This document shows, in pieces, positions 33,773 to 54,226 of a DNA stretch of 64,000 nucleotides. The DNA comes from Eubacteriales bacterium (GTDB lineage Bacteria; Bacillota; Clostridia; Oscillospirales; CAG-272): positions 1,590-65,589 of the forward strand of contig JAZSHT010000104.1 of NCBI GenBank assembly GCA_045533435.1. Reading direction: 5' to 3'. The notes below the pieces were generated by a model. The model saw only the letters and a list, made by a program, of their open reading frames with translations, searched no databases and had not been told where the DNA came from. Numbering within the stretch: the stretch's first letter is position 1; each line of letters starts with the position of its first letter. Made by a program: the position numbers and the translations under genes.

Positions 33773-35245
33773 ATGTTTAGAAATGTAACGCCAGAAAGCG
33801 TTGGTGTTGACTCTAAAAATCTTTTTAAGCTTATAAAAAGGCTAAACGCCTTGCATATGCACAGCCTTTTAGTAGCAAGGGGCAACGATATTTTTTGCGA
33901 ATGCTATTGGAAGCCATTTGATAAGGACTTTAACCACAGAATGTATTCTGTTACAAAGAGCTTTGTGTCGGTTGCAATCGGTCTATGTGTAGAGGATGGC
34001 TTGCTTGAATTAGATGACCCAATTATAGAATATTTTCCTGAAAAAATCAAAAAAGAGCCAGGGGAGTATCTAAAAAAGCAAACAATTCGCGATATGCTTA
34101 CCATGACAACGGTAGGATTTTGTCAAGATTGGTTTAAAGAAAAGCCTTATGACAGAACGGAATTTTATTTAAATGACCAAAACAAAAAGCATCCAAGCGG
34201 AACACTTTGGGAATATGATAGCGCAGGGTCGCAGGTGCTTTCATCATTGGTTGAAAAGGTAACAGGCAAGAGCATTTTTGATTTCTTAAATGAAAGAATT
34301 TTCACAAAATTAGATGCATTTAAAAATGCCACCATATTAAAGACACCTAACGGCGATAGCTGGGGCGATTCGGCTCTTATTTGCACACCGAGGGATTTAC
34401 TCGCATTTGCTCGCTTCGTGTTAAATTACGGCGTATATAACGGCGAAAGGCTGATGAATGAGGACTATCTAAGAGAAGCAACCGCAAGACATAAGGATAA
34501 CTCTCCATCTGCCCACAGGGATTCCTTGCACCGTGGCTACGGCTATCAATTTTGGCGCGCGCCCAATGATAGCTTTGCATTTGTGGGAATGGGAAATCAG
34601 CTTGCTATTTGTGTGCCAGGCAAGGACTTAATTTTCGTTTGCACCGCAGACAATCAAGGCAGTGAATTTTCAACAGAGCTTATTGTAAACGGCTTTTATG
34701 AGTACATTGTTGATGAAATAAGCGACACTCCCCTGCCTGAAAATGAAAATAATTCAAAAATGCTTAATTCTCTCATAAATTCCCTTGAGCTTTACTGTGA
34801 ATACGGCTATGTTGACTCCCCATACCGTGAAATTATAAATGGCGTAACATATAAGTGCGAGGAAAATCAAATGGGAATTAAAAGCTTCCGCTTTGATTTT
34901 GCAAACGATAAAGAGGGAACACTTACATACGAAAATGAAAACGGTACAATGGTATTGCCATTTAAGATAAACTCAAACTATTTTGGTAAGTTCCCTGAGG
35001 AAGGCTATTCCAACGAATATGGCTCTTTACGCACACAGGATGGCTTTAAATATAACTGTGCAACAAGTGGTGCTTGGACACAAACGGACAAAATAACAGT
35101 ATTTTCACAAATTATTGATAAATACTTCGGCAATGTAACATTTTCATTCTATTTTAAGGATGATTTAGCATTTTTAAGATGCGAAAAAACTGCCGAGGAC
35201 TTCCTTTGGCAATACAAAGGCGACGCCGTTGGCGTCAGGGTATAG
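33773..35245 (+). CDS. serine hydrolase, beta-lactamase/transpeptidase-like family
   Basis: 490 aa with SxxK motif (SVTKSF). The last codons and the TAG stop are encoded by a TAGGGTA-class heptamer array. Confidence 0.82.
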   Translation: MFRNVTPESVGVDSKNLFKLIKRLNALHMHSLLVARGNDIFCECYWKPFDKDFNHRMYSVTKSFVSVAIGLCVEDGLLELDDPIIEYFPEKIKKEPGEYLKKQTIRDMLTMTTVGFCQDWFKEKPYDRTEFYLNDQNKKHPSGTLWEYDSAGSQVLSSLVEKVTGKSIFDFLNERIFTKLDAFKNATILKTPNGDSWGDSALICTPRDLLAFARFVLNYGVYNGERLMNEDYLREATARHKDNSPSAHRDSLHRGYGYQFWRAPNDSFAFVGMGNQLAICVPGKDLIFVCTADNQGSEFSTELIVNGFYEYIVDEISDTPLPENENNSKMLNSLINSLELYCEYGYVDSPYREIINGVTYKCEENQMGIKSFRFDFANDKEGTLTYENENGTMVLPFKINSNYFGKFPEEGYSNEYGSLRTQDGFKYNCATSGAWTQTDKITVFSQIIDKYFGNVTFSFYFKDDLAFLRCEKTAEDFLWQYKGDAVGVRV

Positions 35246-35263
35246 GATATAGGGTATAGGGGT
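35236..35263 (+). repeat. heptamer array, class TAGGGTA (CAGGGTA TAGGATA TAGGGTA TAGGGGT)
   Basis: Read directly. Supplies the last codons and the TAG stop (35243-35245) of the upstream CDS. Confidence 0.85.
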
Positions 35264-35383
35264 TCACTTCGCTCACAGGGGTAATTTCCTACTAAGAAGT
35301 AATAATCTCGCTACGAAACGAAGTTGAGTAATTTCGCTATTATTGCATAACACTTAACAAAGTTAAGTTCATAACTTAAAACA

Positions 35384-36558: not shown

Positions 36559-36597
36559 TAGCCGCCAGCCGTTAGCAGCCAGCGGTCAGCCGTTAAC
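36559..36597 (+). repeat. heptamer array, class TAGCCGT (TAGCCGC CAGCCGT TAGCAGC CAGCGGT CAGCCGT TAAC)
   Basis: Read directly. Starts 2 nt after the TAA stop of the CopZ-like gene. Confidence 0.85.
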
Positions 36598-37070: not shown

Positions 37071-37265
37071 ATGCTTGATGTGGCAACATCGTTTAATAAC
37101 ATAAAATTAAATAGCTTTTTCTCACAAAATGCAAAATAAAGCGCTCTATTTTGCATTTTTTGCTAAAATAGATACGGTTATTTTGCACTTTTTGATATTT
37201 ATTTTGATTGTAAAGTATGGTATAATTATTACAACATAGATAATTGAGCTTTAGGGGGGCGTTAT

Positions 37266-39623: not shown

Positions 39624-39636
39624 TTCGCTTCGCTCA

Positions 39637-39671
39637 CAGCGGTCAGCCGTTAGCCGTTAGCGGTTAGCGAG
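39637..39671 (+). repeat. heptamer array, class TAGCCGT (CAGCGGT CAGCCGT TAGCCGT TAGCGGT TAGCGAG)
   Basis: Read directly. Preceded by the TAG stop (39621-39623) and the box TTCGCTTCGCTCACAG. Confidence 0.88.
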
Positions 39672-39795
39672 ATTTGTTTAGCGAATGTAGCTTCACTCTG
39701 ATTTAATACTAAATTTTTCTATGGCAGAGAAGGGGGAAAACCGCCACCTCCTGCGGTCCCCTCTCTCTGTCTTTTTGCAAAGAAAGGAGCGGATT

Positions 39796-40335
39796 ATGAA
39801 AAACAGAATTTATGCACCAAAGCAATCAAAGAGCATTTTTATAGTTGGAATCGCTTTTTTCATATTTTCTATGATTTTAAGCATATTTATAGTCGCTCTG
39901 ACATTTTCAAGTGAAGATATTGTTGCTTCCATTGTGTTGTCAATTATCATTTTTTCTTTTTCCATCTCTATGTTAATAAGCTGTTTATTTGTTATGAACA
40001 GAGAATGTGGCAAAATGTGGTATGATACGGAAAGCAAGGAAATATGCAGAGAAGGGTACATAAAATTCTTTAAGCATACGGTAAAATTAGAAAACATTAA
40101 AGACATTATAATAATACCAATATACAGAGCCGGTCTTTATTTTCAGCTTGTGGAAGAAGATAACGAAAATTGTAGCAAAGCATCAAAAAAGCATCCTATC
40201 CGCTTGCCATTAACCGATAAAAGCATTGAATTTATAAAAGTGTTTTGGGATAAGCCAATAACACATAAATTAGATTCCCACGGCAATGTATTAGATATTA
40301 CCGATTACGAAAGAAGACTTTACGGCTTGAAATAA
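39796..40335 (+). CDS. hypothetical membrane protein (TM hairpin plus small cytosolic domain)
   Basis: The ATG at 39796 has RBS AAAGGAG (MKNRIYAPKQ...). The track start at 39721 would read through a hairpin in the spacer. Confidence 0.6.
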   Translation: MKNRIYAPKQSKSIFIVGIAFFIFSMILSIFIVALTFSSEDIVASIVLSIIIFSFSISMLISCLFVMNRECGKMWYDTESKEICREGYIKFFKHTVKLENIKDIIIIPIYRAGLYFQLVEEDNENCSKASKKHPIRLPLTDKSIEFIKVFWDKPITHKLDSHGNVLDITDYERRLYGLK

Positions 40336-40353
40336 AATCATTTTACTAATTTG

Positions 40354-40388
40354 CTGACCACCGACCACTAAACACTGACCACTAAAAA
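40354..40388 (-). repeat. heptamer array, reverse orientation of class TGGTCAG (CTGACCA CCGACCA CTAAACA CTGACCA CTAAAAA)
   Basis: Read directly. Overlaps the start of a rho-independent terminator. Confidence 0.8.
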
Positions 40389-40501: not shown

Positions 40502-41947
40502 ATGAAAATTGACGAAAGAAAATTAACCTTGCTTTGCGACTTTTACGAGCTTACTATGGCAAGAGGATATTTTCACTCTGAAATTAAGGACAAGATTGCA
40601 TACTTTGATGTGTTTTTTAGAAAAGTGCCAGACAATGGCGGTTATGCTATTTTCTGCGGTCTTGAACAAATTATTGAATATATTAAGTCTATCAAATTTG
40701 AGGATGATGATATTGAATATCTTCGTTCAAAGGGAATTTTTGACGAGGAATTTTTAGCTTACTTAAAGGACTTTAAGTTCAGAGGCGACATTTGGAGCGT
40801 TCCTTCAGGCACGGTAATTTTCCCAAATGAGCCTATTATGACTGTTCGCGGAACTGCTATGGAAGCACAATTTATTGAAACATTTATTCTTTTAGTTGTA
40901 AACCATCAAAGCTTAGTTGCAACTAAAGCATCAAGAATTGTAAGAGCCGCAAATGGCAGACCTGTATCCGAATTTGGAGCAAGACGCGCCCACGGTCCTG
41001 ATGCTGCAATTTATGGCTCACGAGCTGCATATATTGGCGGATGTGCATCTACATCATGCGCTATTTCCGATAAAATGTTTGGCGCAAAGGCAGGTGGCAC
41101 TATGGCGCACTCCTGGATTCAAATGTTTGACACAGAGTACGATGCTTTTAAAACCTACTGCACTCTCTATCCCGATAATCCAACGCTTTTAATTGATACC
41201 TACGATGTATTAAACAGCGGTCTTCCAAATGCTATTAAAGCATTCAAGGACTGTCTAAGTGAGGAGCAAAGAGAGCATTGCGCTATCCGCATTGATAGCG
41301 GCGATATTACCTATCTTACAAAAAAGATAAGAAAAATCCTTGATAATAGCGGACTTACAAAATGCAAGATTGTAGTTTCTAACTCCCTTGATGAATACAT
41401 TATAAGAGATATTCTTTTACAAGGCGCGCAGATTGATATGTTTGGCGTTGGCGAAAGACTTATTACTGCAAAGAGCGAGCCTGTTTTCGGTGGTGTATAT
41501 AAGCTATGCGCAGTTGAGGATGAAAGAGGAATTACACCAAAAATCAAAATAAGTGAAAATGCCGCAAAGATTACAAATCCCGACTTTAAAAAGGTATATC
41601 GCTTCTATTCAAAGGACACAGGCAAGGCAGAGGCAGACCTTCTTACAATTCATGATGAGGTTATTGATACATCAAAGCCTTATGAGCTTTTTGACCCAGA
41701 CCACACATGGAAGCGTAAGGTAATGGATAATTACACATTAAGAGAATTACTTGTTCCTGTATTTGTAAAAGGCGAATGTGTTTACGAAAATCCAACCATT
41801 GAAGAAATTCGCGCATACTGTCAAAGGGAGCTTGATTCCATGTGGGATGAGGTGCTTCGCTTTGAAAATCCACATAATTATTATGTTGACTTGTCTCAAA
41901 AATTGTTTGATGAGAAGCATAAATTACTTCGTCAAGGACGGAAGTAA
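40502..41947 (+). CDS. pncB: nicotinate phosphoribosyltransferase
   Basis: 481 aa with a typical NAPRTase N-terminus (LTLLCDFYELTMARGYF) and the HSWIQ motif. Confidence 0.93.
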   Translation: MKIDERKLTLLCDFYELTMARGYFHSEIKDKIAYFDVFFRKVPDNGGYAIFCGLEQIIEYIKSIKFEDDDIEYLRSKGIFDEEFLAYLKDFKFRGDIWSVPSGTVIFPNEPIMTVRGTAMEAQFIETFILLVVNHQSLVATKASRIVRAANGRPVSEFGARRAHGPDAAIYGSRAAYIGGCASTSCAISDKMFGAKAGGTMAHSWIQMFDTEYDAFKTYCTLYPDNPTLLIDTYDVLNSGLPNAIKAFKDCLSEEQREHCAIRIDSGDITYLTKKIRKILDNSGLTKCKIVVSNSLDEYIIRDILLQGAQIDMFGVGERLITAKSEPVFGGVYKLCAVEDERGITPKIKISENAAKITNPDFKKVYRFYSKDTGKAEADLLTIHDEVIDTSKPYELFDPDHTWKRKVMDNYTLRELLVPVFVKGECVYENPTIEEIRAYCQRELDSMWDEVLRFENPHNYYVDLSQKLFDEKHKLLRQGRK

Positions 41948-41949
41948 TT

Positions 41950-41983
41950 TAGTGGTCAGTGATCAGTGGTCAGTGATCAGTAG
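41950..41983 (+). repeat. heptamer array, left arm of an inverted pair (TAG TGGTCAG TGATCAG TGGTCAG TGATCAG TAG)
   Basis: Starts 2 nt after the pncB TAA. Complementary to 42073-42103. Confidence 0.92.
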
Positions 41984-42072
41984 ATTTCTTGACAATTGTA
42001 ACTAAAAAAGAATAGTAAGGATAAGCTTTTAAGCAGTACAGCTTTCGTTGTTTTTGGTCGTTTGCTAAACAT

Positions 42073-42103
42073 CTGACCACTGACCACTGACTACTGACCA
42101 CTG
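42073..42103 (-). repeat. heptamer array, right arm of an inverted pair (CTGACCA CTGACCA CTGACTA CTGACCA CTG)
   Basis: Ends 17 nt before the ymdB ATG. The reverse complement matches the left arm except at 2-3 positions. Confidence 0.92.
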
Positions 42104-42120
42104 CTTAAAGCGGATATATT

Positions 42121-42918
42121 ATGAACAACCTAAGACTTCTAGCAATCGGCGATATTGTAGGGCCGAGTGCGGTAGAATATATAAGAAAAAATTTATGGGC
42201 AATAAGAAAAAAGTACAAGATTGATGGTGTTATTGCCAACGGCGAAAATGCGTCTGAGCCAAACGGTATTGACAGGCAAACTGCCGAAACGCTTTTTGAA
42301 AGCGGTGTTGATGCAATCACAACAGGAAATCATGTATTTAGAAAAACTACGGTTTTTAAATATCTTGATGATGAGGATAGAATTTTACGCCCTCTCAATT
42401 TTGTTTCATCTTGTCCCGGACATGGAGATGCAATAATAAATATAAACGGCTATAAAATGCTACTTTTAAATGCTTTAGGTCAGGTTTATTCCGATAATCC
42501 ACCTAACTGCCCCTTTGAAGCCATAGAAAAAGCACTCAAAAGAAACGAGGGCGACTATGATTTTGCGGTTTTAGATTTTCATGCAGAGGCAACGGGAGAA
42601 AAGAAAGCAATCGCTTACAATTTTGCCGACAAAATAGGCGTAATATTCGGCACTCACACTCATATTCAAACTAATGACGCAAGAATACTTGAGGGTAAAT
42701 GCGCATATGTTACCGACATTGGTATGTGTGGCGCATATGATAGCATTTTAGGTGTTAAAAAGGAAGCTATTATATTTAAGTTAAAAAATAAAATGCTTTC
42801 AAAATTTGATTTTGCAGAAGGCGAGATTGAATTTAACGGAGCAATTTTTGAAATAGACACAGACACAGGAAAAGGCATTTCCTGTGAATTAGTAAACATT
42901 AAAGGAGATATAAAATGA
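42121..42918 (+). CDS. ymdB: YmdB-family metallophosphoesterase (2',3'-cyclic-nucleotide phosphodiesterase-like)
   Basis: 265 aa with motifs LAIGDIVG, ANGENA, TTGNH, GTHTHIQTND. Confidence 0.9.
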   Translation: MNNLRLLAIGDIVGPSAVEYIRKNLWAIRKKYKIDGVIANGENASEPNGIDRQTAETLFESGVDAITTGNHVFRKTTVFKYLDDEDRILRPLNFVSSCPGHGDAIININGYKMLLLNALGQVYSDNPPNCPFEAIEKALKRNEGDYDFAVLDFHAEATGEKKAIAYNFADKIGVIFGTHTHIQTNDARILEGKCAYVTDIGMCGAYDSILGVKKEAIIFKLKNKMLSKFDFAEGEIEFNGAIFEIDTDTGKGISCELVNIKGDIK

Positions 42919-44195
42919 AAACAACTGAGCTTTTAAATTATGTAAAAAACGGAGAATTAAACGCTAAGCTTAACGATATTTACGGCGAGGAAAATGTTGA
43001 AAGCCAAAAAGCAAGATACGAGGAAGCAATTAACGACTTTTTAAATATTTACGGAGATAGAGAGGTTTCAATTTTCTCAGTTCCAGGCAGAAGCGAAATT
43101 TCAGGTAACCATACCGACCATAACCACGGTAAGGTGCTTGCAGGCTCAATTAACCTTGATATTATTGCTATTGCATCAAAGACAGATGATGGTGTAATTA
43201 GAATTAAGTCAAAGGGTTTTGATGAGGATAAAATCGACACAAATACATATACAGAGCCAAATGAAAAGGACTTTTTCAAATCAGGCGCTTTAATTGCAGG
43301 TATGGCAAAAGCATTTACAAATGCAGGCTACAACAAGGGCGGTTATATCGCCTATACAACATCAAATGTATTTAAGGGCTCAGGACTTTCTTCCTCTGCG
43401 GCATTTGAGGTTATGGTTGGTAATATCCTTAACTATTTCTATAATGACGGCAAGGTTGACAATGTAGAAATTGCAAAAATGGCGCAATTTTCAGAGAATG
43501 TATTCTTTGGTAAGCCTTGCGGACTTATGGACCAAATGGCTTGCGCAGTTGGTGGCTTTGTTTATATTGACTTTGAGGACACAAAAAATCCTAAGATTGA
43601 AAAAATTGACTTTAACCTAAGTGGTGCAGGCTATGCGCTTTGTATTGTAAATACAGGTGGCAACCACGCAGACTTAAACGATGATTATGCTTCAGTTCCA
43701 AGTGAAATGAAAGCAGTTGCAAAGGAGCTTGGCTGCGAATATTTAAGACAAACCTGTCTTGGCGAGGTTATGGCAAATATAAAGGAGCTTCGCGAAAAGG
43801 TTGGCGACCGTGCAATTTTAAGAGCATATCACTTCTTTAACGAAAACGATAGAGTATCAGCCCAAGCAAGCTACTTAAAGGAAAATGATGTTGAAAGCTT
43901 CCTTGAATTTGTATTAAAGTCAGGAAATTCAAGCTTTAAATTCTTACAAAATGTATATACAACAAAGAATGTAAGTGAGCAGGGGCTTTCCCTTGCGCTT
44001 GCAATTACTGAAAATATCCTTTGTGATACAGGCGCAGCTTGGCGTGTTCACGGTGGTGGCTTTGCAGGTACAATTCAAGCATTCGTACCTTTTGCACAGG
44101 TTTCCGCTTATAAGGAAGAAATTGATGCAGCACTTGGCGAGGGCGCTTGTCATATTTTAAGAATCCGTCCTTACGGCGCAATTCAAGTAATGTAA
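42915..44195 (+). CDS. galactokinase-family GHMP kinase
   Basis: 426 aa with GRSEISGNHTDHNHG (galactokinase signature-like) and GHMP motif GSGLSSSAA. Overlaps the ymdB stop by 4 nt. Confidence 0.8.
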   Translation: MKTTELLNYVKNGELNAKLNDIYGEENVESQKARYEEAINDFLNIYGDREVSIFSVPGRSEISGNHTDHNHGKVLAGSINLDIIAIASKTDDGVIRIKSKGFDEDKIDTNTYTEPNEKDFFKSGALIAGMAKAFTNAGYNKGGYIAYTTSNVFKGSGLSSSAAFEVMVGNILNYFYNDGKVDNVEIAKMAQFSENVFFGKPCGLMDQMACAVGGFVYIDFEDTKNPKIEKIDFNLSGAGYALCIVNTGGNHADLNDDYASVPSEMKAVAKELGCEYLRQTCLGEVMANIKELREKVGDRAILRAYHFFNENDRVSAQASYLKENDVESFLEFVLKSGNSSFKFLQNVYTTKNVSEQGLSLALAITENILCDTGAAWRVHGGGFAGTIQAFVPFAQVSAYKEEIDAALGEGACHILRIRPYGAIQVM

Positions 44196-44203
44196 TATTA
44201 TTA

Positions 44204-44376
44204 GTTATGAATCCGCTATGCGAATGTTATGAACTTGCTACGCAAGCGTTATGAATTTTGCGAAACAAAATGTTATGATATGATTGCCAAACGCCGTCAG
44301 GCTCATAACACGCGTAGCGTTCATAACGACGAAGTCTCATAACTTGTCCTGAGGCTTCGCGGAAGGCAATCATAAC
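44204..44376. repeat. zipper element: 4 x GTTATGA then 4 x TCATAAC, each separated by 8-26 nt
   Basis: GTTATGA at 44204, 44226, 44248, 44272. TCATAAC at 44303, 44321, 44337, 44370. Spacers contain mini-hairpins (CTTGC-TAC-GCAAG). Confidence 0.85.
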
Positions 44377-44377
44377 T

Positions 44378-44410
44378 GTTCTCCTTTCGGAGAACGAAAG
44401 GAGAACTATG
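44378..44410 (+). promoter_or_regulatory. alternative hairpins involving the Shine-Dalgarno sequence of the MBL gene
   Basis: GTTCTCCTTTC (44378-44388) is exactly complementary to GAAAGGAGAAC (44396-44406, the RBS). Its first 7 nt also pair with GGAGAAC (44389-44395). Confidence 0.5.
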
Positions 44411-45181
44411 ATTACTGCATACACACTTTTCTCAGGCTCAGGTGGGAACTGTACATATGTAACAGATGGAAAAGCAAAAATACTTATTGATGCCGGAAAG
44501 AGCTGTCTTGCCATTGAAAAAGCTCTTAATGCTCTTGGCGCATCACTTTCAAGCATCAACGATATTTTTGTAACTCACGAGCATAGCGACCACACCGTAG
44601 GGCTTGAGGTAATTTCTAAAAAATATAATATTCCTGTGCATTTTGCTTACCCTTCATACGATAAGGCAATTCAAAACACCACATATTTAAAGCGTAGTGC
44701 TATTCGCCACGAGGTGCTTTTTGAGAAAAAGGTGGGGGATGTGTTAATAAAATCCTTTGAGGTGCCACACGATAGTATGCAAAATCTTGGCTACATAATA
44801 AGTGATGGCGAGGACACCTTCGGCACTGCTACCGATATGGGACATGTTACCGAAAGCCTTGCAAATGAGCTTATAAAATGTAGATGTGTTTTAATTGAAG
44901 CAAACCACGATAAAAAGATGCTTAAGGAAGGAAAGTATCCACAGTTTTTAAAGGATAGAATTTTGTCCCCACACGGACATTTATCAAATGAAAACTGCGC
45001 CCGCCTTGCTTGCTATCTTGCAGATAACGGAGTTAAATGCATCACTCTTGGGCATTTAAGCAAGGAAAATAATTTACCAAAAATTGCACTTGACACAGTA
45101 AATAACTTACTTGAAGCAAATAATTTATCCGTCGATTTATCTGTCGCTTCATCTGAAGAAGCGGTATTGCTTACAAGGTAA
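44408..45181 (+). CDS. MBL-fold metallo-hydrolase (YycJ/WalJ-like)
   Basis: 257 aa with HEHSDH motif. The RBS is embedded in alternative hairpins. Confidence 0.85.
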   Translation: MITAYTLFSGSGGNCTYVTDGKAKILIDAGKSCLAIEKALNALGASLSSINDIFVTHEHSDHTVGLEVISKKYNIPVHFAYPSYDKAIQNTTYLKRSAIRHEVLFEKKVGDVLIKSFEVPHDSMQNLGYIISDGEDTFGTATDMGHVTESLANELIKCRCVLIEANHDKKMLKEGKYPQFLKDRILSPHGHLSNENCARLACYLADNGVKCITLGHLSKENNLPKIALDTVNNLLEANNLSVDLSVASSEEAVLLTR

Positions 45182-45187
45182 GCAATA

Positions 45188-45218
45188 TAGTGGTCAGTGG
45201 CTAGTGGTCAGTGGTCAG
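45188..45218 (+). repeat. heptamer array, left arm (TAG TGGTCAG TGGCTAG TGGTCAG TGGTCAG)
   Basis: Starts 6 nt after the TAA of the MBL gene. Complementary to 45330-45356. Confidence 0.92.
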
Positions 45219-45329
45219 TAAGCTTGCTATACGACTTTTACAACTAACCGCTAATTATGTACCGCTTATTAAAATGACGTTTAACGCTTATCTTTGTTTT
45301 TGTTCGTGTTCTTTGGTCTATCCGCTTGT

Positions 45330-45356
45330 CACTGACCACTGACCACTGATCACTAC
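45330..45356 (-). repeat. heptamer array, right arm (CA CTGACCA CTGACCA CTGATCA CTAC)
   Basis: Followed by AAAA and then CGACTGAAAGGAG (45361-45373) and the rsmG ATG. Confidence 0.92.
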
Positions 45357-45378
45357 AAAACGACTGAAAGGAGTTTTT

Positions 45379-46098
45379 ATGTTCACAGAAAAACTAATAA
45401 GCGTAGCAAACAGAAACGATGCTACTAAAAACTTAATAAATGAGGAAAATGCACGCAGGCTTGAAGCATTATCAAGCCATATGCTTGAGGTAAATAAAAC
45501 ATTAAATCTTACCGCTATTAAGGATGAGGATGGTGTTATTTTAAAGCACTTAGTTGACTCATCTGCGGTTGTGAATTTCATTCCCGAAAACGCAAGTCTT
45601 TGCGATATTGGCTGTGGTGGTGGCTTTCCATCACTTGTAATTGCAATTTTACGCCCTGATGTGTCTGTATTTTCAGTTGATAGCGTATCAAAAAAGGTTG
45701 CTTATGTTGAAAGCGCTGCACAAAAATTCGGTCTTAAAAACGAAAAAACCTCAAACGAAAGAGCCGAGGCTTTAGGACAAGGCAATAAGCGCGAGAGCTT
45801 TGATGTTGTTACTGCAAGAGCCGTTGGCAGACTTAATCTTATAAGTGAGCTTTGTATTCCGCTAGTTTCGGTAGGTGGCGTATTCCTTGCAATGAAATCC
45901 CTCTCAACTGATGAGGAATTAGAGGAAGCACAAAAAGCCATAGCTTTACTGGGTGGTAAGGTGGAAAATGTGTTTACCTACACGCTTACCGATGACAACG
46001 AGGAAATTGAGCGCTCAATCGTAGTTATACGAAAAATAAAAAACACTCCGCCTAAGTATCCACGAAATAATTCGCAGATTGCAAAGAAGCCGCTTTGA
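45379..46098 (+). CDS. rsmG: 16S rRNA (guanine527-N7)-methyltransferase
   Basis: 239 aa with SAM motif DIGCGGGFPS, typical of RsmG/GidB. Confidence 0.93.
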   Translation: MFTEKLISVANRNDATKNLINEENARRLEALSSHMLEVNKTLNLTAIKDEDGVILKHLVDSSAVVNFIPENASLCDIGCGGGFPSLVIAILRPDVSVFSVDSVSKKVAYVESAAQKFGLKNEKTSNERAEALGQGNKRESFDVVTARAVGRLNLISELCIPLVSVGGVFLAMKSLSTDEELEEAQKAIALLGGKVENVFTYTLTDDNEEIERSIVVIRKIKNTPPKYPRNNSQIAKKPL

Positions 46099-47697: not shown

Positions 47698-47735
47698 CTG
47701 CTGACGGCTGACAGCTAACGGCTGGTGGCTGTTCA
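47698..47735 (-). repeat. heptamer array, reverse orientation of class TAGCCGT (CTG CTGACGG CTGACAG CTAACGG CTGGTGG CTGTTCA)
   Basis: Read directly. Lies in the 5' UTR, ending 26 nt before the citrate synthase ATG. Confidence 0.85.
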
Positions 47736-47761: not shown

Positions 47762-49135
47762 ATGGCAAGAGTAAAGAAAGAATTAACACAATTAACTCCA
47801 CAGCTTATGGGTTATGTAGAAAAATGCTCAATCAATACAACTATTGAAGCAGAGCTTTTTGACAAATATAATGTAAAAAGAGGACTTAGAGAAAAGGACG
47901 GTAAGGGTGTAGTTGTAGGTCTTACTGAAATTTCCGAGGTACAGGGCTTTAAGTATGTTGATGGCGTAAGAACTCCTTGCGAGGGCGAGCTTTTCTACCG
48001 TGGTATCAATATTTATGACCTTGTTGATGGATTTTTAAATGATGGCAGACACGGCTACGAGGAAACTATTTACCTTCTTCTTTTCGGTGTTCTTCCAAAT
48101 AAAGAGGAGCTTGATGATTTTATAAAGCTACTTTCAAAATATCGTTCACTTCCAAAGAATTTCGTTCGTGATATTCTTATGAAGGCATCAGGCAAGGACA
48201 TGATGAACTCACTTGCACGAAGCGTGCTTACTCTTTATGCTTATGATGACAAGGCAGATGATACATCAATTCCTAATGTGCTTCGCCAAAGCTTACAGTT
48301 AATTTCAGAGTTTCCACTTTTAGCGGTTTATGCATATCATGCATATGAATTCTATGAAAAGAAAAATAGCTTAGTTATTCGCCCACCAAAGGCGGGACTT
48401 TCAACTGCGGAAAACTTCCTTTATATGCTAAGAAAGGATGGAAAATATACTCCACTTGAAGCAAGAATTCTTGATGTTGCGTTAGTTTTACACGCAGAGC
48501 ACGGTGGCGGTAACAACTCCACCTTTACAACTCATGTTGTTTCATCATCCGGTACAGACACATACTCAACAATTGCCGCATCCCTTGGCTCACTTAAGGG
48601 TCCAAGACACGGTGGCGCTAACATTAAGGTTGTTGAAATGATTGAAGACATTAAGAAAAATGTTAAGGATTGGACAGATGAAAACCAAATTTCCGATTAC
48701 CTAAACAAAATCTTAAATAAAGAAGCATTTGATGGCAAGGGACTTATTTACGGTATGGGACATGCCATTTACTCTAAATCCGACCCAAGAGCTTGTATTT
48801 TAAGAAGATTTGTTGAAAAGCTTTCAAAGGAAAAGGGCAAGGATAAGGACTATAAGCTTTGTCAGTTAATTGAAAGACTTGCACCCAAAATCATCGCAGA
48901 GCATAAAGCAATTTTCAAGGGCGTAAGCGCAAATATTGACTTTTATAGTGGATTTATCTATGATATGCTTGATATTCCTCACGAGCTATATACACCACTC
49001 TTTGCAATTTCTCGTATTGCAGGCTGGAGCGCACACCGCCTTGAGGAAATCTTAATGAACGGTAAAATCATCCGTCCTGCTTATCAGGAAATCATCCCAA
49101 GAGGCACTTATGTTCCTATGGAAGAAAGAAAATAG
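47762..49135 (+). CDS. citrate synthase
   Basis: 457 aa with motifs HAEHGGGNNSTF, GPRHGGAN, GMGHAIY. The TAG stop is followed directly by a TGGTCAG array. Confidence 0.93.
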   Translation: MARVKKELTQLTPQLMGYVEKCSINTTIEAELFDKYNVKRGLREKDGKGVVVGLTEISEVQGFKYVDGVRTPCEGELFYRGINIYDLVDGFLNDGRHGYEETIYLLLFGVLPNKEELDDFIKLLSKYRSLPKNFVRDILMKASGKDMMNSLARSVLTLYAYDDKADDTSIPNVLRQSLQLISEFPLLAVYAYHAYEFYEKKNSLVIRPPKAGLSTAENFLYMLRKDGKYTPLEARILDVALVLHAEHGGGNNSTFTTHVVSSSGTDTYSTIAASLGSLKGPRHGGANIKVVEMIEDIKKNVKDWTDENQISDYLNKILNKEAFDGKGLIYGMGHAIYSKSDPRACILRRFVEKLSKEKGKDKDYKLCQLIERLAPKIIAEHKAIFKGVSANIDFYSGFIYDMLDIPHELYTPLFAISRIAGWSAHRLEEILMNGKIIRPAYQEIIPRGTYVPMEERK

Positions 49136-49163
49136 TGGTCAGTGGCTAGTGATCAGTAGTTAG
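49133..49163 (+). repeat. heptamer array (TAG TGGTCAG TGGCTAG TGATCAG TAG TTAG)
   Basis: The first TAG is the citrate synthase stop. Followed by TTAGCTTTTGCACAACATTACA, which is homologous to the sequence next to the array at 52941-52974. Confidence 0.92.
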
Positions 49164-49191
49164 CTTTTGCACAACATTACACATACTAAAA

Positions 49192-49221
49192 AACGCATAC
49201 ATCTTTTCGGTGTATGCGTTT
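49192..49221 (+). repeat. 30-bp direct repeat copy 1 (terminator hairpin AACGCATACATCTTTTCGGTGTATGCGTTT)
   Basis: Identical 30-mer at 52070-52099. The two copies bracket the R-M cassette. Confidence 0.95.
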
Positions 49222-49344
49222 ATTTTTAGTAAAATGAAAATAATTATTAGAATAGCTCACGATTTTTTAAAATTGCATTTTGGATCTTGATTTTGTTCGA
49301 TAAATAGAATATAATAGACTTATAAAATATAAGGAGACAATTTT

Positions 49345-50415
49345 ATGCTTCAATATATGTCTTGCCGAGATGCTGCCGAAAGATGGAATATATCACAACG
49401 CAGAGTTTCTGTTTTATGCGCTGAAAATCGCATACCCAATGTTGCTATGCTCGGCAATATGTGGATAATTCCCATAAATGCCGAAAAGCCAACGGATGCA
49501 CGAAAAAATAACGGTGCAAAGCCAACTAATGAAAAAGCTCATCCTTTTATAAAATGGGCAGGTGGTAAAACTCAGCTTTTAGATGTACTTAAAAGTAATT
49601 TACCAAGTGGTATTGGTACTACTATTAGAAAATATGCAGAGCCTTTTGTTGGTGGCGGTGCATTCCTTTTCTCTATACTCGAGGAATACAACTTTGAGGA
49701 AATTTACATTAGCGATAACAATAAAGAGCTTATGAATGTTTATGTCGCCATTAGGGATAACTGTAACCAGCTTTTAAATGCTCTCAACACCTTGCAAAAC
49801 GAATATAATGGACTTAGTGCCGAATTGCAAGAGAAATTTTATTATGAAAAGCGCGAGGAATTTAATACAGTTGAATTGACCGATAAAACAAGTGTTCAAA
49901 AGGCTTCATTGTTTATTTTCTTAAATAAATCTTGTTTTAATGGTTTATTTAGGGTTAACAAAAAGGGCAAATATAATGTTCCTTTTGGAAAACACAAGTC
50001 TGTTTCAATTTGCGATAGCGATAATTTAACTAAAATTTCTGCTATGCTACAAAATGTTATAATAAAGGCTTGCGATTATCAAGAGGTTATGAGCTTTGCT
50101 GATAGCTCAACTCTTGTATATTTTGACCCACCATATAGACCCTTGAATGTAACATCAGGCTTTACCTCATATACCGAGGATGATTTTTCTGATAAAAATC
50201 AAATAGATTTAGCAAATTGCTTCAAGGCTCTTTCAAAAAAAGGCGTTAAAGTAATGCTTAGCAACTCAGACCCAAAAAACACAAACGAAAATGACAATTT
50301 CTTTGACGATTTGTATGCAGATTTTAACATTTTGCGTGTTGAAGCCTCTCGTATGATAAACAGTAAAGGCTCATCAAGAGGAAAAATCAAAGAGCTTTTA
50401 ATTAAGAATTATTAA
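49345..50415 (+). CDS. Dam-type N6-adenine DNA methyltransferase (GATC-type) with N-terminal HTH domain
   Basis: 356 aa. The first ~50 aa are HTH-like (CRDAAERWNISQRRVSVLCAENRIPN), followed by the Dam pattern KWAGGK...EPFVGGGA...YFDPPY. Confidence 0.9.
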   Translation: MLQYMSCRDAAERWNISQRRVSVLCAENRIPNVAMLGNMWIIPINAEKPTDARKNNGAKPTNEKAHPFIKWAGGKTQLLDVLKSNLPSGIGTTIRKYAEPFVGGGAFLFSILEEYNFEEIYISDNNKELMNVYVAIRDNCNQLLNALNTLQNEYNGLSAELQEKFYYEKREEFNTVELTDKTSVQKASLFIFLNKSCFNGLFRVNKKGKYNVPFGKHKSVSICDSDNLTKISAMLQNVIIKACDYQEVMSFADSSTLVYFDPPYRPLNVTSGFTSYTEDDFSDKNQIDLANCFKALSKKGVKVMLSNSDPKNTNENDNFFDDLYADFNILRVEASRMINSKGSSRGKIKELLIKNY

Positions 50416-50424
50416 GGAGTAGAT

Positions 50425-51303
50425 ATGAAAAGAAATTTTAACGAATGGCTTGCTAATTTCAGAGAAAGCATAGCTGACTACAAGTATTATATTGATTTTG
50501 ACAAAGTACATAGAAATGTTGATAGCATAAAGATTGAGTTGAATATATTAAATACACTTGTAGGCTCTAAAAACATTGAAGCTGACTTTATAAACTTAGT
50601 AAAGAAATATCCTGAAACATTAAAGGTTATTCCTATTCTACTTGCAAAGAGAGAAAGTGAAATATATTGCCAAGATCAAAATTTAGCACGAACATTTGAA
50701 TTTTCCAAAAATATTCCCATAGATGCAGATGAGAAATTTTTCAAAGAGTATTGCTATTTTATGAGAGAAACAGGGCTTTTTGATCTATTACAAAATCGCA
50801 TTATAAGCAACTTGGTTGATTATGTAACAGGCGTTGAAACAGGCTTGGATTCAAACGGCAGAAAAAACCGTGGCGGTCATTTAATGGAAAATTTAGTTGA
50901 AAGCTATATTCAACAGGCTGGATTTATAAAAAATGAAACTTATTTTAAAGAAATGAACCTTTCAGATATAGAACATCTTTGGGGAATTGACTTATCTGCA
51001 ATTTCAAACACAGGTAAAACGGAAAAACGATTTGATTTTGTAGTGAAAACCAACAACAAAATTTATGGAATAGAAGCAAACTTTTATTCAAGTGGCGGCT
51101 CTAAGCTAAATGAAACAGCAAGAAGCTATAAAAATATAGCTATTGAGTCAAAAGAAATAGATGGGTTTGAATTTGTATGGTTTACCGACGGAAACGGTTG
51201 GAAATCTGCAAGACACAATTTAGAAGAAACCTTTGATGTAATGGAACACATTTATTCTATTGCCGACTTAGAAAACGGCATAGCAAACGAATTATTTAAC
51301 TGA
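50425..51303 (+). CDS. DpnII/MboI-family type II restriction endonuclease (GATC)
   Basis: 292 aa, collinear with my recollection of DpnII: ...LNILNTLVGSKNIE..., NLVDYVTGVETGLDSNGRKNRGG, KRFDFVVK, NFYSSGGSKLNETARSYK. Confidence 0.88.
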   Translation: MKRNFNEWLANFRESIADYKYYIDFDKVHRNVDSIKIELNILNTLVGSKNIEADFINLVKKYPETLKVIPILLAKRESEIYCQDQNLARTFEFSKNIPIDADEKFFKEYCYFMRETGLFDLLQNRIISNLVDYVTGVETGLDSNGRKNRGGHLMENLVESYIQQAGFIKNETYFKEMNLSDIEHLWGIDLSAISNTGKTEKRFDFVVKTNNKIYGIEANFYSSGGSKLNETARSYKNIAIESKEIDGFEFVWFTDGNGWKSARHNLEETFDVMEHIYSIADLENGIANELFN

Positions 51304-51304
51304 T

Positions 51305-52042
51305 ATGGCAAAGAAAATACCTTTACAACCAGAAAATTTTGAGCTTGAAACAAATACTGTTTGGAGCTTTCCAAATAGGGGAAAATGGGCAACTCACGAT
51401 GCCAAATACCGCGGAAATTGGTCGCCTTATATCCCAAGAAATATAATTTTAAGATATTCAAACGAGGGTGATACAGTTCTTGATCAATTTGTTGGCGGTG
51501 GTACAACTATGGTTGAAGCCAAGCTGACAGGCAGAAATGCAATAGGAGTTGATATTAACCCAAATGCAGTTGAATTGTCTTTGAAAAAATGTAATTTTGA
51601 ATACGAATCAAGTTCACAAATTAAAATAATGCAAGGTGATGCAAGATATCTTAATTTAGAGAACGAAAGCATTGATCTTATTTGCACTCATCCACCCTAT
51701 GCTGATATTATCAAGTATAGCGAAGATATTAAAGGCGATTTGTCGCACCTTAAAATAAAAGATTTTTTAACAGAGATCTACAAGGTAGCGCAGGAAAGCT
51801 ATCGAGTTTTGAAAAAAGGCAAGTTTTGTGCTATTTTAATGGGAGATACCCGCAAAAACGGCATGGTTCAACCTCTCGCTTTTGAAACAATGCGTCTTTT
51901 TGAACTTGTTGGATTTAAGACAAAAGAAATTATAATAAAAGAACAACATAATTGTAAAGCAACGGGTTTTTGGAAAACTAATAGCATAAAACACAATTTT
52001 TTGTTACTTGCCCACGAATATTTATTTGTATTCAAAAAATAA
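51305..52042 (+). CDS. second SAM-dependent DNA methyltransferase of the R-M cassette
   Basis: 245 aa with motif I FVGGGTT and motif IV THPPY. Its start is 1 nt after the endonuclease stop codon. Confidence 0.82.
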   Translation: MAKKIPLQPENFELETNTVWSFPNRGKWATHDAKYRGNWSPYIPRNIILRYSNEGDTVLDQFVGGGTTMVEAKLTGRNAIGVDINPNAVELSLKKCNFEYESSSQIKIMQGDARYLNLENESIDLICTHPPYADIIKYSEDIKGDLSHLKIKDFLTEIYKVAQESYRVLKKGKFCAILMGDTRKNGMVQPLAFETMRLFELVGFKTKEIIIKEQHNCKATGFWKTNSIKHNFLLLAHEYLFVFKK

Positions 52043-52069
52043 AATCTTATTTTAAATATTTTAAAAAAT

Positions 52070-52099
52070 AACGCATACATCTTTTCGGTGTATGCGTTT
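52070..52099 (+). repeat. 30-bp direct repeat copy 2
   Basis: Identical to 49192-49221. Also serves as a bidirectional terminator for 51305-52042 (+) and 52101-52433 (-). Confidence 0.95.
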
Positions 52100-52100
52100 T

Positions 52101-52885: not shown

Positions 52886-52911
52886 ACGCATACGGATTTC
52901 CGTATGCGTTT
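52886..52911. terminator. terminator related in sequence to the 30-bp direct repeats
   Basis: AACGCATACGG-ATTT-CCGTATGCGTT. Same ACGCATAC/GTATGCGT stem ends as 49192 and 52070. Confidence 0.8.
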
Positions 52912-52940
52912 TATTATTTGTAAGCTTGTGCAAAATCTAA

Positions 52941-52974
52941 CTGCTGACCGCTGACCACTGATCACTGACCACTA
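52941..52974 (-). repeat. heptamer array (reverse complement: TAG TGGTCAG TGATCAG TGGTCAG CGGTCAG CAG)
   Basis: This TAG is the stop of the minus-strand gene 52972-53847. Inverted counterpart of the array at 49133-49163. Confidence 0.92.
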
Positions 52975-53847
52975 AATATTTATTGTTTGATTTGCGTAAA
53001 TATCCACACATGTGTCGCTATTTTCAAGGATTAAGGACACAGGGGTGTCAAAAATTTCAGTTGGCAAGTCGGTTTTGAGTGTAACCTGTGTGCCGTTTTC
53101 GGTGTTTTCAACTACTAACTCGGAGTTATCACGAAGGTAAATATATTTTACCATATCGTTATATGAGCAGAGCCAAATGTTATTTTTGTTTGCTTGCTCA
53201 GCAAGGTACATACATTCAGGCAAGAATGTTTCGTACTTTTGGGCGTGGTGGGTATCCTGCTCCTTTTTAGAAAGCCAATGGTTCATTTGAACTGTCCAAC
53301 CGCCCTCGCTTATTGTCTTATCAATATTATCAATATATGGCTGTAAATCGTAAACAAAGCGAGTTGTAAATGTGCCAACATCATATAAATTCATGTTATA
53401 TGTGTCGTTAATTCTGTCATTTCCGTTTCGGTTTGAATAGTAATATTCCTTTAAAATGTTCCAACCCTCCTGTGTGCTACCGCCACCGGGAGTTACATAT
53501 GCAATTACAGGTGTGCCGTAAATTTCCTCAAGTTTTTCCTTAGTTTCCTTAGCATCCTTATGTAATTTTTCGGGGTCGGTTTCGCCATTATAGCATAAGC
53601 AATGGTCAATACTGTGTCCGCAAATATCAAAATAGCCCTCGTTAATAAGGTCCTTCCACATTTTAATTATCCATTCGTGCAAGAAGCCAACAGTTTGAGC
53701 AGAGGTAATTTTGATTTTTTGTCCTGTCTTTTCGTAAACCTCTTTTAAATTTTCGTATGCATCAAGAGTTGACTCGCGATAGCATCCATCATCAAATACA
53801 AAGCTGTATGCACTTTTTGCGTTGTTATAGTAAGTTGCAATTTTCAT
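52972..53847 (-). CDS. polysaccharide deacetylase-like protein
   Basis: 291 aa with FVFDDG and GHSIDH motifs. The TAG stop is followed, in gene orientation, by a TGGTCAG array. The 5' UTR carries the CCCTAT array plus CGACTGAAAGGAG. Confidence 0.7.
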   Translation of the reverse strand: MKIATYYNNAKSAYSFVFDDGCYRESTLDAYENLKEVYEKTGQKIKITSAQTVGFLHEWIIKMWKDLINEGYFDICGHSIDHCLCYNGETDPEKLHKDAKETKEKLEEIYGTPVIAYVTPGGGSTQEGWNILKEYYYSNRNGNDRINDTYNMNLYDVGTFTTRFVYDLQPYIDNIDKTISEGGWTVQMNHWLSKKEQDTHHAQKYETFLPECMYLAEQANKNNIWLCSYNDMVKYIYLRDNSELVVENTENGTQVTLKTDLPTEIFDTPVSLILENSDTCVDIYANQTINI

Positions 53848-53874
53848 AATTGTTTTACTCCTTTCAGTCGTAAA

Positions 53875-53910
53875 CAGGGAATAGGGTATAGGGAATAGGA
53901 GATAGGGAAA
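53875..53910 (+). repeat. heptamer array, class TAGGGTA (CAGGGAA TAGGGTA TAGGGAA TAGGAGA TAGGGAA)
   Basis: Lies in the 5' UTR of the minus-strand gene and reads CCCTAT-type in that mRNA. Adjacent to CGACTGAAAGGAG (reverse complement of 53858-53870). Confidence 0.9.
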
Positions 53911-53961
53911 TTTGCCTTACTCCTATTTCATTATAAATATTCTAACATTTTATAATATAAG

Positions 53962-53980
53962 TGTCAATAAAATATTGACA
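53962..53980. promoter_or_regulatory. palindrome TGTCAATAAAATATTGACA carrying back-to-back -35 boxes of divergent promoters
   Basis: Plus strand: TTGACA (53975-53980), 17 nt, TATTAT (53998-54003). Minus strand: TTGACA (reverse complement of 53962-53967), 17 nt, TAGAAT (reverse complement of 53939-53944). Confidence 0.6.
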
Positions 53981-54170
53981 AATAGATAAAAAAGTTGTAT
54001 TATGCTTTGGGAATAATTTTTTAACTAGCAGATGAACACTGACCAGTAATATGCAATCTTCGGTTGATTCCATACAATCCTTGACTGATTGCATATGACC
54101 TTCGGTCAATTCCATACAATGCTTTGCGTTGATTACATACACATCTGCGATGTGATTGCGACTTTGTCGC

Positions 54171-54204: not shown

Positions 54205-54226
54205 AAAGCGACTGAAAGGAGCGAAA

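Follow-up and report, generated by a model that had tools for sequence, protein, structure and literature searches.

Mirror-image heptanucleotide arrays bound a strain-variable spacer between pncB and ymdB in gut Clostridia

Intergenic heptamer arrays and the pncB-ymdB hairpin

Genomes of Xanthomonas each contain about 185 tandem arrays of the heptamer GGGAATC, most often with four units (Rehm et al. 2015, PMC4692102). The mean distance from these arrays to the upstream open reading frame (ORF) is 28 nt. The arrays vary between close species and include 70-75 convergent inverted pairs per genome that are potential stem-loops; similar arrays of GGGGAYT are found in Nostoc (PMC4692102). In the summary of Mrazek's work given in the same paper, long microsatellites with a heptanucleotide unit outnumber all others, and polymerase slippage may be the cause (PMC4692102). 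Here we analyze a stretch of 64,000 nucleotides (the window) from a Eubacteriales bacterium of the Oscillospirales lineage CAG-272 (contig JAZSHT010000104.1, positions 1,590 to 65,589 of the forward strand). The spacer between pncB and ymdB in this window is a strain-variable insert bounded by mirror-image heptanucleotide microsatellites of four units each. It extends to gut Clostridia a class of intergenic heptamer microsatellites, some of them in inverted pairs, that is already known from Xanthomonas, Nostoc/Calothrix, Beggiatoaceae, and Geobacter. The closest precedent for the spacer is the inverted pairs of GGGAATC arrays in Xanthomonas.

The arrays in the window resemble those of Xanthomonas and Nostoc in that they are intergenic, have a seven-nucleotide unit and most often four units, lie near an upstream stop codon, vary extensively in length and sequence among close relatives, and occur in inverted pairs. 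We distinguish three families of units in the window: A (TGGTCAG / TGATCAG), B (CNGTYAG, e.g., CCGTTAG or CGGTCAG), and C (GGGTATA / GGGGATA). Units of family C (GGGGATA / GGGAATA) are identical to the GGGAATC or GGGGAYT units at six of seven positions. However, the window comes from the low-GC Clostridia, another phylum; several unit families are present in one genome; the main units (TGGTCAG and CNGTYAG) are not G-quadruplex formers; and orientation, which is about 50:50 in Xanthomonas, is strict here. A likeness also extends to the cyanobacterial short tandemly repeated repetitive sequences (STRRs), which were reportedly described by Mazel et al. in 1990 and have heptamers such as TTGGTCA and CCCCAGT. 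In both cases there are several tandem heptamers per genome, mostly intergenic, and STRR2 (TTGGTCA) is one position from the GTGGTCA found here. The STRRs belong to a cyanobacterial lineage, and we know of no description of mirror-image pairing or of stop/start polarity for them.

Other described elements share parts of this architecture. Correia/NEMIS elements of Neisseria, ERIC elements, and pneumococcal BOX elements are small intergenic inserts in operons; they have complementary ends, are co-transcribed, and form long hairpins. RNase III cuts those of NEMIS, and BOX elements are modular with tandem internal units. Those elements have a conserved sequence and target duplications, whereas only the architecture is conserved here. 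In marine Beggiatoaceae, direct repeats of TAACTGA lie in the sense orientation right before start codons, many of which lack a canonical ribosome-binding site, and only 1 of 170 repeat sets is indirect (inverted) (PMC4679880). Geobacter metallireducens has heptanucleotide elements (MTYCTGA x5 and GGACCGG x4) of four or five tandem units (PMC2700814). The right arm of the pncB-ymdB hairpin, which can be read as CCACTGA repeats, and the family B right arms (CGGCTGA / CGGCTAA) are similar to these. In contrast to the Beggiatoaceae repeats, mirror pairs are frequent here and the unit varies between strains. A literature search with the unit sequences returned unrelated primer matches only.

The pncB gene encodes nicotinate phosphoribosyltransferase (40502-41947, + strand; Pfam NAPRTase_N and NAPRTase_C) and ends with a TAA codon at 41945-41947. 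The left (5') arm, TAG(TGGTCAG TGATCAG)x2 TAG (41950-41983, +), consists of family A units in the G/U-rich orientation. It is followed by a loop of 89 nt (41984-42072, +) and by the right (3') arm, CTGACCA CTGACCA CTGACTA CTGACCA CTG (42073-42103, +), which is the C-rich form of family A and carries TGA in all three frames. A 17-nt linker (42104-42123, +, including the ATG of ymdB at 42121) contains a truncated AAAGCGGA ribosome-binding module; ymdB encodes a PF13277 protein. These coordinates and arm sequences are as the first-pass annotation had given them. Each arm has four tandem heptamers (Tandem Repeats Finder: period 7, 4.4 copies per arm), and the heptamer TGGTCAGTGGTCAG, with at most two mismatches, occurs 26 times in the window versus 0.12 expected. 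An inverted-repeat search aligned 41951-41980 with 42073-42102 (30 nt, 90% complementary, 92 nt apart), and in our own register, 27 of 31 positions form Watson-Crick pairs, 2 form G.U pairs, and 2 are A.C mismatches. The stem begins 2-3 nt past the pncB stop and finishes 17 nt ahead of the ymdB start.

The spacer had been proposed to be essentially one long hairpin with heptamer-array arms, and folding agrees. Sense RNA of the spacer folds at -59.6 kcal/mol versus -37.4 +/- 3.8 kcal/mol for shuffled sequences (z -5.8), and 0 of 200 shuffles fold as well. The antisense RNA folds at -59.6 kcal/mol (z -7.9) and the single-stranded DNA (ssDNA) at -30.3 kcal/mol (z -5.4). Thus, the stem belongs to the DNA duplex as such and not to any one transcript. 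When folded separately as RNA, the left arm forms structure through G.U pairs (-16.2 kcal/mol) and the right arm forms none (0 kcal/mol). The hairpin does not resemble an intrinsic terminator: the right arm is followed by CTTAAAGCGGATATATT, and neither arm appeared in a scan for terminators. Rfam 15 at gathering score matched a single tRNA in the whole window, and at E<=1 it had no match over 41800-45500.

Two further properties noted in the first-pass annotation are borne out. By direct reading, the region upstream of ymdB (AAAGCGGATATATTATG) has no good Shine-Dalgarno sequence. The loop contains promoter-like hexamers, TTGACA-16 nt-AATAGT (41989-42016, +; 10/12, a consensus match only).

A second hairpin of the same kind is found at 45188-45356. 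Its left arm, TAG TGGTCAG TGGCTAG TGGTCAG TGGTCAG T (45188-45219, +), begins 6 nt after the stop of a gene for a metallo-beta-lactamase (MBL)-fold hydrolase, and its right arm (45330-45355, +) is CACTGACCACTGACCACTGATCACTA. The inverted repeat is 26 nt long and 88% complementary, with its arms 116 nt apart, and the fold has z -4.1. The arms of both hairpins belong to family A, and the two loops share a single island (GCTT-TCGTTGTTTTTGGTCGT vs GCTTATCTTTGTTTTTGTTCGT) that is identical at 19 of 22 positions; 0.2% of 2000 mononucleotide shuffles score equally high. The rest of the loops (89 vs 110 nt) cannot be aligned, and the 22-nt island occurs nowhere else in the window. The likeness between the two hairpins is real but limited, and the proposal that they are homologous composite elements is only weakly true.

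Alleles of the spacer and matching of the arms

A search with YmdB leads to an uncultured gut lineage, represented by metagenome-assembled genomes that were obtained from faeces and ruminant gut and carry the labels Eubacteriales, Clostridia or Oscillospiraceae. The adjacency of pncB and ymdB is conserved. One relative, L002, has DNA that is approximately 95% identical to the window and contains 4 arrays in 20.8 kb, and its alignment with the window breaks at array-bearing spacers and otherwise only at a restriction-modification insertion (49225-52070). The arrays are restricted to this lineage: in eight farther relatives (YmdB 61-80% identical) there are 0 arrays at the locus, and two others, L004 and L011, have 1-2. 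We recovered alleles from other strains by exact look-up of YmdB cluster members that are at least 98% identical. Look-ups with the exact protein sequences of PncB, the MBL hydrolase, and RsmG from the window gave no match.

Among strains with YmdB at least 98% identical, there are four alleles of the pncB-ymdB spacer, which are unrelated except that alleles 1 and 2 are homologous. Allele 1 is the family A hairpin and is found in the window and in L013 and L014. In the latter two, the right arm has five units rather than four, and the loop has 2 SNPs and a 1-nt indel. Such a change of copy number in one arm indicates slippage. Allele 2 (L001, L015-19, L148, and L150) is a family B hairpin of 288 nt in which a tandem duplication of approximately 110 nt yields a second right arm, and in L150 there is a third. 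Allele 3 (L002, L022, L025, and L146/147) has AGCTAAATT units between small variable hairpins, mirrored by AATTTAGCT units. Lastly, allele 4 (L023/24, and also L152, from a species with an 88% identical YmdB) has GTTATGA units mirrored by TCATAAC. Neither of two candidate functions for the loop is conserved: the promoter-like hexamers are not kept in allele 2, and a 17-codon ORF with a ribosome-binding site in allele 2 has no counterpart in allele 1.

Comparison of alleles 1 and 2 shows that the arms change together. Both have 4+4 units, a common inner flank (CAGTAGATTTCTTGACAATTG vs CAGCAAGATTTGTTAATTG), and shared loop islands (a score reached by 0.3% of shuffles). The loop at 41984-42072 has short islands (AATAGTAAGGA, ACAGCTTTC) in common with the loop of the second hairpin and with allele 2 of other strains (0.2-0.3% of mononucleotide shuffles reach such scores). 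All four left units start with T in allele 1 and with C in allele 2, and all four right units end with A and G, respectively. Thus, the compensatory pattern between arms that the first-pass annotation had asked for is present, as a T to C change in all left units that is matched by A to G in all right units. In a comparison of five hairpins from this lineage, 86.5% of cells are paired and nine pairs carry a change in each partner. At position 1, all four pairs are C-G in three sequences and U-A in two, with none broken, and sliding the register cuts pairing to 11-54%. The four covarying positions are not independent events, as the units of an array evolve in concert.

Similar variation is found at neighbouring spacers. 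The insert that forms the second hairpin is missing in six other strains, in which the spacer is 9-12 nt, and others have a different insert there. The spacer between a galK-like gene and the MBL hydrolase gene (44204-44376, +) is filled in the window with the unit of allele 4, as GTTATGA x4 between mini-hairpins, mirrored by TCATAAC x4 (-81.4 kcal/mol, z -7.6). In other strains this spacer has AGCTAAATT / AATTTAGCT or AATTCAT / ATGAATT units in the same architecture, or none: in three strains it is empty, and the stop and start codons overlap as TAATG. The mini-hairpins are all different (window 44196-44407; L002 12056-12275; L004 3835-4420). Paralogues of this modular spacer retain their units, and the stems of their mini-hairpins differ yet still pair. 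Just ahead of the MBL start, 44378-44406 reads GTTCTCC-TTTC-GGAGAAC-GAAA-GGAGAAC, an arrangement kept in all strains that have the spacer, in which an anti-Shine-Dalgarno sequence can pair with either a decoy GGAGAAC or the real Shine-Dalgarno.

The presence and absence of inserts at MBL-rsmG and galK-MBL is what would be expected of a mobile element. The first-pass annotation had called the pncB-ymdB spacer a REPIN-like doublet. REPINs are hairpins of two inverted repetitive extragenic palindromic (REP) sequences with conserved doublet geometry and a cognate REP-associated tyrosine transposase (RAYT) (Bertels & Rainey 2011, PMC3116915). The inserts described here resemble them in having two inverted repeats and a spacer, an extragenic location, and a hairpin predicted in ssDNA or mRNA. 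A non-autonomous element of this kind, or a miniature inverted-repeat transposable element moved by another transposase, with the arms as its terminal inverted repeats, would fit with the inverted arms, with arm ends that read TAG...CTA, with the range of cargo between arms (60 nt to 3.7 kb), and with the recurrence of unit types at several loci of one genome (AGCTAAATT units at three loci of L002). We consider this origin quite unlikely, and the REPIN label is not supported. The arms are tandem microsatellites, not REP palindromes, and the C-rich arm has no self-structure. Neither spacing nor internal sequence is conserved, and a Pfam scan of the approximately 50 ORFs of the window found no transposase, RAYT (Y1_Tnp), or reverse transcriptase; nor does the window contain a parent element. 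Filled and empty alleles (MBL-rsmG and galK-MBL) show no target-site duplication and no clean empty site; instead, the stop codon, ribosome-binding site, and initial codons vary between them. In addition, the same type of hairpin is found with an unrelated loop in a viral contig of 61% GC (see below).

Matching of the arms is also found where they are not on one transcript. In a divergent region (53848-54226), conserved central promoters lie between two arrays, so that each array is in the leader of a different transcript. A family C array of CCCTATN repeats on the minus strand (53872-53909, -) is in the 5' leader of a minus-strand deacetylase gene, and its inverted partner, (CCCTATC)n (54171-54205, +), is in the 5' leader of a CitMHS transporter gene. 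They form 28 Watson-Crick and 2 G.U pairs over 39 positions. Both arms belong to family C in the window and both to family B in L002. Similarly, 49134-49191 (+) and 52909-52966 form a 58-nt inverted repeat that is 81% complementary with its arms 3717 nt apart. This repeat consists of family A arrays and about 25 nt of unique inner flank (TTTTGCACAA...), and the partner arm (52909-52975, -; TAG TGGTCAG TGATCAG ...) lies directly past the stop of the minus-strand deacetylase gene. The 3.7-kb interval contains terminators, a DpnII-type restriction-modification system, a 110-aa gene, and a gene for an XRE-type regulator. That arms match even when they are on separate transcripts argues that their complementarity is made at the level of DNA.

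Several observations concern what lies between arms. The DpnII-type cassette (49345-52042), which acts on GATC, encodes a D12 methyltransferase, a DpnII endonuclease, and a second N6 methyltransferase, and it is absent from L002 and L004. A terminator hairpin of approximately 33 nt is directly duplicated at its flanks (49187-49221 / 52068-52100). Family A units of the window include a variant that bears GATC, TGATCAG. In L004 (3972-4325; YmdB 80% identical), the loop between mirrored arrays holds a gene for a 117-aa 23S rRNA intervening-sequence protein (PF05635, E 1e-27). Other known settings of this family are rRNA inserts that RNase III excises and diversity-generating retroelements, where it is the Avd protein.

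We hold with moderate confidence a joint account of these arrays, in which slippage and DNA conversion from arm to arm are the origin of the matching units, a double-stranded RNA stem is a consequence, and a filter acts on orientation. The arrays form a genome-wide population, their copy number varies between strains, they can be fully different between alleles at a single locus, and paired arms always match. Replication slippage would expand the arrays and homogenize their units. Because MutS deals with loops no longer than about 4 nt, slippage loops of 7 nt would escape repair. When the template is switched within one molecule at a quasi-palindrome, one arm is rewritten as a copy of the other. 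Such switching, or gene conversion between the two inverted arms (quasi-palindrome correction), could transfer changes from arm to arm. If pncB and ymdB are co-transcribed, the arms would then pair into a nearly perfect double-stranded RNA stem of approximately 30 bp that loops out 89 nt and brings the pncB stop and the ymdB start together. Such a stem would be a plausible substrate for RNase III and a plausible barrier to exonucleases.

The main rival to this account is that the hairpin is a selected RNA device, either an intercistronic processing or stabilizing site (through RNase III-type cleavage or as an exonuclease barrier) or a means of stop-start coupling. We regard this as possible, though doubtful. 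The changes in the arms would then be true compensatory substitutions, and the poor Shine-Dalgarno of ymdB would be set beside the pncB stop. The strong stem in sense RNA is as expected for such a device, but the antisense RNA and ssDNA fold equally well. Covariation at four equivalent positions would also be expected, but the arms match equally in the divergent leaders, which are never one RNA, and across 3.7 kb. The heptamer alleles 1 and 2 have no good Shine-Dalgarno, whereas the non-heptamer alleles 3 and 4 have ATAGGAG, and the stem fits the interval from stop to start; however, the second hairpin has a strong ribosome-binding site that is located outside the stem. Arms can also be unequal (4 vs 5 units). 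In addition, near-identical flanking genes have four unrelated spacers, and sister loci have none, indicating that no particular structure is required. Two further points in favour of an RNA device come from elsewhere in the window: orientation tracks gene direction, including beside two minus-strand genes, and the hairpin at 59255 has 6 G.U pairs, which would be tolerated only in sense RNA.

Arrays across the window and their orientation relative to genes

The pncB-ymdB hairpin is not a two-copy element but belongs to a window-wide system that the first-pass annotation had missed. A lag-7 self-similarity scan together with Tandem Repeats Finder detected at least 19 arrays of period 7 across the 64 kb, in three unit families, each at a gene boundary (in a spacer or overlapping a stop codon), and four units is the commonest size. 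Family A is found at 8834, 40354, 41950, 42073, 45188, 45330, 49134, 52937, and 57309; family B at 5600, 36560, 39636, 47700, 59255, and 59345; and family C at 35237, 53872, 54171, and 58735. Families A and B conform to a single pattern, YNGTYAG (CTRACNR on the 3' arm), and CGGTCAG and TGGTCAG are one transition apart. The inverted pairs in the window include three that are co-directional, one in the divergent region, and one across 3.7 kb, with gaps between arms of 89-92, 110-116, about 55-62 nt, and 3.7 kb.

Most of the remaining arrays follow stop codons on the plus strand. An array of (TTAGCCG)n (family B, 5600-5641, +) is at the mutS stop, at the start of the mutS-mutL spacer. Both of these genes are intact and adjacent (3028-7686), so the richness in repeats is not from loss of mismatch repair. 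A single family A array, TAG(TGGTCAG)6 (8834-8887, +), is at the tgt stop; the family C array (AGGGTAT)n (35237-35264, +) overlaps the stop of a beta-lactamase-family gene; and a family B array (36560-36597, +) lies 3 nt past the stop of an 85-aa ORF with an MxCxxC motif. At the family A array at 57309-57346 (+), the TGA stop of typA is inside the first unit. A family C array (58735-58772, +) fills the 18-nt gap between a methionine gamma-lyase-family gene and rlmH, and a family B hairpin follows the rlmH stop (59255-59378, +; arms 59255-59289 / 59345-59378). The arms of this hairpin form 20 Watson-Crick and 6 G.U pairs over 33 positions, and it folds at -39.9 kcal/mol (z -4.1). The balance of G.U pairs against A.C mismatches might reveal selection on sense RNA, but such positions are too few for this purpose: the pncB-ymdB stem has 1-2 G.U pairs vs 2 A.C mismatches, and the hairpin at 59255 has its 6 G.U pairs. 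Two arrays border a segment (39636-40354) whose gene content varies between strains: a family B array (39636-39672, +) on the left, after the stop of a 566-aa ORF, and a C-rich family A array (CTGACCACCGACCACTAAACACTGACCACTAA; 40354-40386, +) on the right. Lastly, a C-rich family B array (GCTGACG GCTGACA GCTAACG ...; 47700-47735, +) is just upstream of the citrate synthase ribosome-binding site.

The orientation of arrays is tied to the direction of the adjacent gene. All 12 post-stop arrays in the window are G-rich in the sense of that gene, and all five arrays directly before a ribosome-binding site or start are C-rich. The rule also holds beside two minus-strand genes, and its sole exception is the array at 40354. 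The stop codon often substitutes for the CAG of a preceding unit, as TAG directly followed by TGGTCAG. Such strict orientation relative to genes speaks for a filter on RNA or transcription. In the joint account favoured above, selection at the RNA level would act mainly on orientation and not on pairing as such, with a G/U-rich arm tolerated after a stop and a C-rich arm before a start.

The self-structure of the arms as RNA is at best part of the answer. The G-type arms of family A fold on themselves through G.U pairs (-6 to -14.5 kcal/mol), and the C-type arms of families A and C are entirely unstructured. As the cause of the rule, self-structure fails for the G-type arms of family C and for the right arms of family B. 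In metagenome arrays from unrelated organisms, the contrast is small (-2.5 vs -1.4 kcal/mol, among the matches listed). We also rejected the idea that arrays are insulators with stops in three frames. In families A and B it is the outward arm that has a TGA in each frame, and in family C it is the inward arm that has TAG. Because the arm with stops differs by family, the idea is not general.

Short ribosome-binding modules accompany some C-rich arrays. The module ACGACTGAAAGGAG is found at 45360-45373 (+), 53858-53871 (-), and 54208-54221 (3 matches vs 0.01 expected), each time directly behind a right-type (C-rich) array, whatever its unit family. A second module, AAAGCGGAAAGGA, is found at 47744 and 57489, ahead of starts at 47762 and 57507, and its truncated form is the one before ymdB.

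The position of C-rich arrays directly before starts, some of which lack a Shine-Dalgarno sequence, is like that of the Beggiatoaceae TAACTGA repeats (PMC4679880), for which MacGregor proposed S1, Csp, or CsrA as binders (PMC4679880). By analogy, arrays could be sites for a protein that binds single-stranded nucleic acid and acts post-transcriptionally, with the complementary arm as its antagonist. A mode of four units, here as in published arrays (PMC4692102; PMC2700814), and the GGA motifs in family C units would be in keeping with such a protein. However, the unit sequence is free: at least three families are present in one genome, a locus can switch family between strains, and arms from unrelated organisms use nearly any NN dinucleotide. 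A sequence-specific binder cannot explain this freedom, and we think it very unlikely that protein binding is the basis of the system.

The window also contains repeats and spacers of other kinds. Two copies of a tandem or palindromic motif of approximately 31 nt (AAAATAGAAACGCTTATTTTGCA...) are in divergent promoter regions (37117-37195 and 62210-62268), and these copies, at 37117 and 62210, look like operator sites of one regulator. Two CTTACTTTTTCTTTGGAAAAAGAAAAAGTAAG-like palindromes, 48 nt apart, lie downstream of mnmG (61497-61600). Long, GC-richer spacers with apparent local structure are upstream of a gene for a GH38 mannosidase (28305-28778) and of mnmG (59380-59619); neither spacer has an Rfam match at gathering score.

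Mirror-image arrays in unrelated contigs and the origin of the arms

Scans with GTCAGNNGTCAGNNGTCAG identified at least 120 loci each in JGI metagenome contigs (GC 33-71%; L026-L145) and in IMG/VR viral contigs (L153-L272). Two control cores matched for composition also gave at least 120 matches, so no special abundance can be claimed for the GTCAG core. The scans confirm that heptamer arrays are generally widespread. In 15 pairs that we examined from unrelated organisms, the arms carry complementary NN (G.U included) in nearly all cases. One such pair, in L190 (2860-3010; IMG/VR, 61% GC), is TAG-(TGGTCAG)n...(CTGACCA)n-CTG-CT-ATG between two genes, and thus has the unit and layout of the window in an unrelated genome with an unrelated loop. 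Several viral contigs (L154, L190, L193, and L201) have 7-9 GTCAG-core arrays each.

The order of the arms in these contigs is asymmetric. Among the matches listed, the arrangement 5'-(GTCAGNN)n...(NNCTGAC)n-3' outnumbers the reverse by 14:1 in metagenome contigs and by 16:2 in viral contigs, vs 3:4 and 3:7 for the same arrangements of the control cores. A layout with the G arm first reads identically on both strands and amounts to the rule seen in the window, with the G type after a stop and the C type before a start. Likewise, among the metagenome matches listed, 31 post-stop arrays are of G type vs 12 of C type; the G-type arrays begin within about 0-17 nt of the stops of long frames, and most of the C-type cases are frames ended by the TGA of the array itself. 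Array size is also skewed among the matches listed: 46 arrays have 4 core units vs 6 with 5 (21 vs 8 and 27 vs 9 for the controls). Any mechanism must account for this asymmetry with the G arm first.

One type of explanation places the asymmetry in the way that the repeats are added. In an unrecognized process of insertion or repair, a spacer could break or open and have repeats added to, or recognized at, both of its 3' ends. The arrangement 5'-(NNGTCAG)n...(CTGACNN)n-3' would then arise of itself on either strand, and filler or cargo could be captured. The excess of the G-arm-first order over the control cores among the matches listed would follow directly, and the bracketing of variable cargo (genes included) and the breaks in the window-L002 alignment at arrays or modular spacers are also consistent with it. 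We give this explanation very little probability. There is no candidate enzyme, and the phase of arrays with the stop codon (TAG for CAG) fits local slippage. A co-transcriptional constraint on RNA could also yield the asymmetry, since with the G arm first the C-rich arm is never exposed before its partner and might avoid Rho loading.

A broader proposal, which we view as unlikely, is that mirror arrays are the ends of a widespread and unrecognized insert, or a cassette boundary, in bacteria and phages, made or used by a directional DNA process. Such a process could, for example, be the work of an unrecognized recombinase, or repeats could be added from a template to both 3' ends where a spacer has opened. 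If true, the proposal would explain the G-arm-first order, the matched units, cargo that ranges from 60 nt to genes, and the four alleles at one locus.

Several points weigh against the joint account of slippage, arm-to-arm conversion, and an orientation filter that we favour. We infer template switching, and the concerted change could also stem from selection for a stem in RNA or from conversion by arrays elsewhere (ectopic conversion). The strict orientation and the sharp drop in arrays above four units suggest a constraint beyond neutral slippage. Homogenization is imperfect, with 2 A.C mismatches at pncB-ymdB and 7 unpaired positions at 59255. Lastly, co-transcription of pncB and ymdB is an assumption, there is a promoter-like site inside the loop, and we infer RNase III cleavage from general properties of the enzyme only.

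Neither a function nor an origin has been agreed on for tandem heptamers, the commonest long microsatellites of bacteria, in the time since STRRs were described from cyanobacteria in 1990. The spacers described here lie between near-identical housekeeping genes and provide a natural allelic series at single loci, in which the same position is empty, has unit A or unit B, has four vs five units, or has a modular version. This series makes it possible to test whether the matching of arms comes from DNA-templated conversion or from selection on RNA, and what effect a stem has on a polycistronic mRNA. The rule that the G arm comes first, which is found in unrelated contigs, is a simple, falsifiable regularity.

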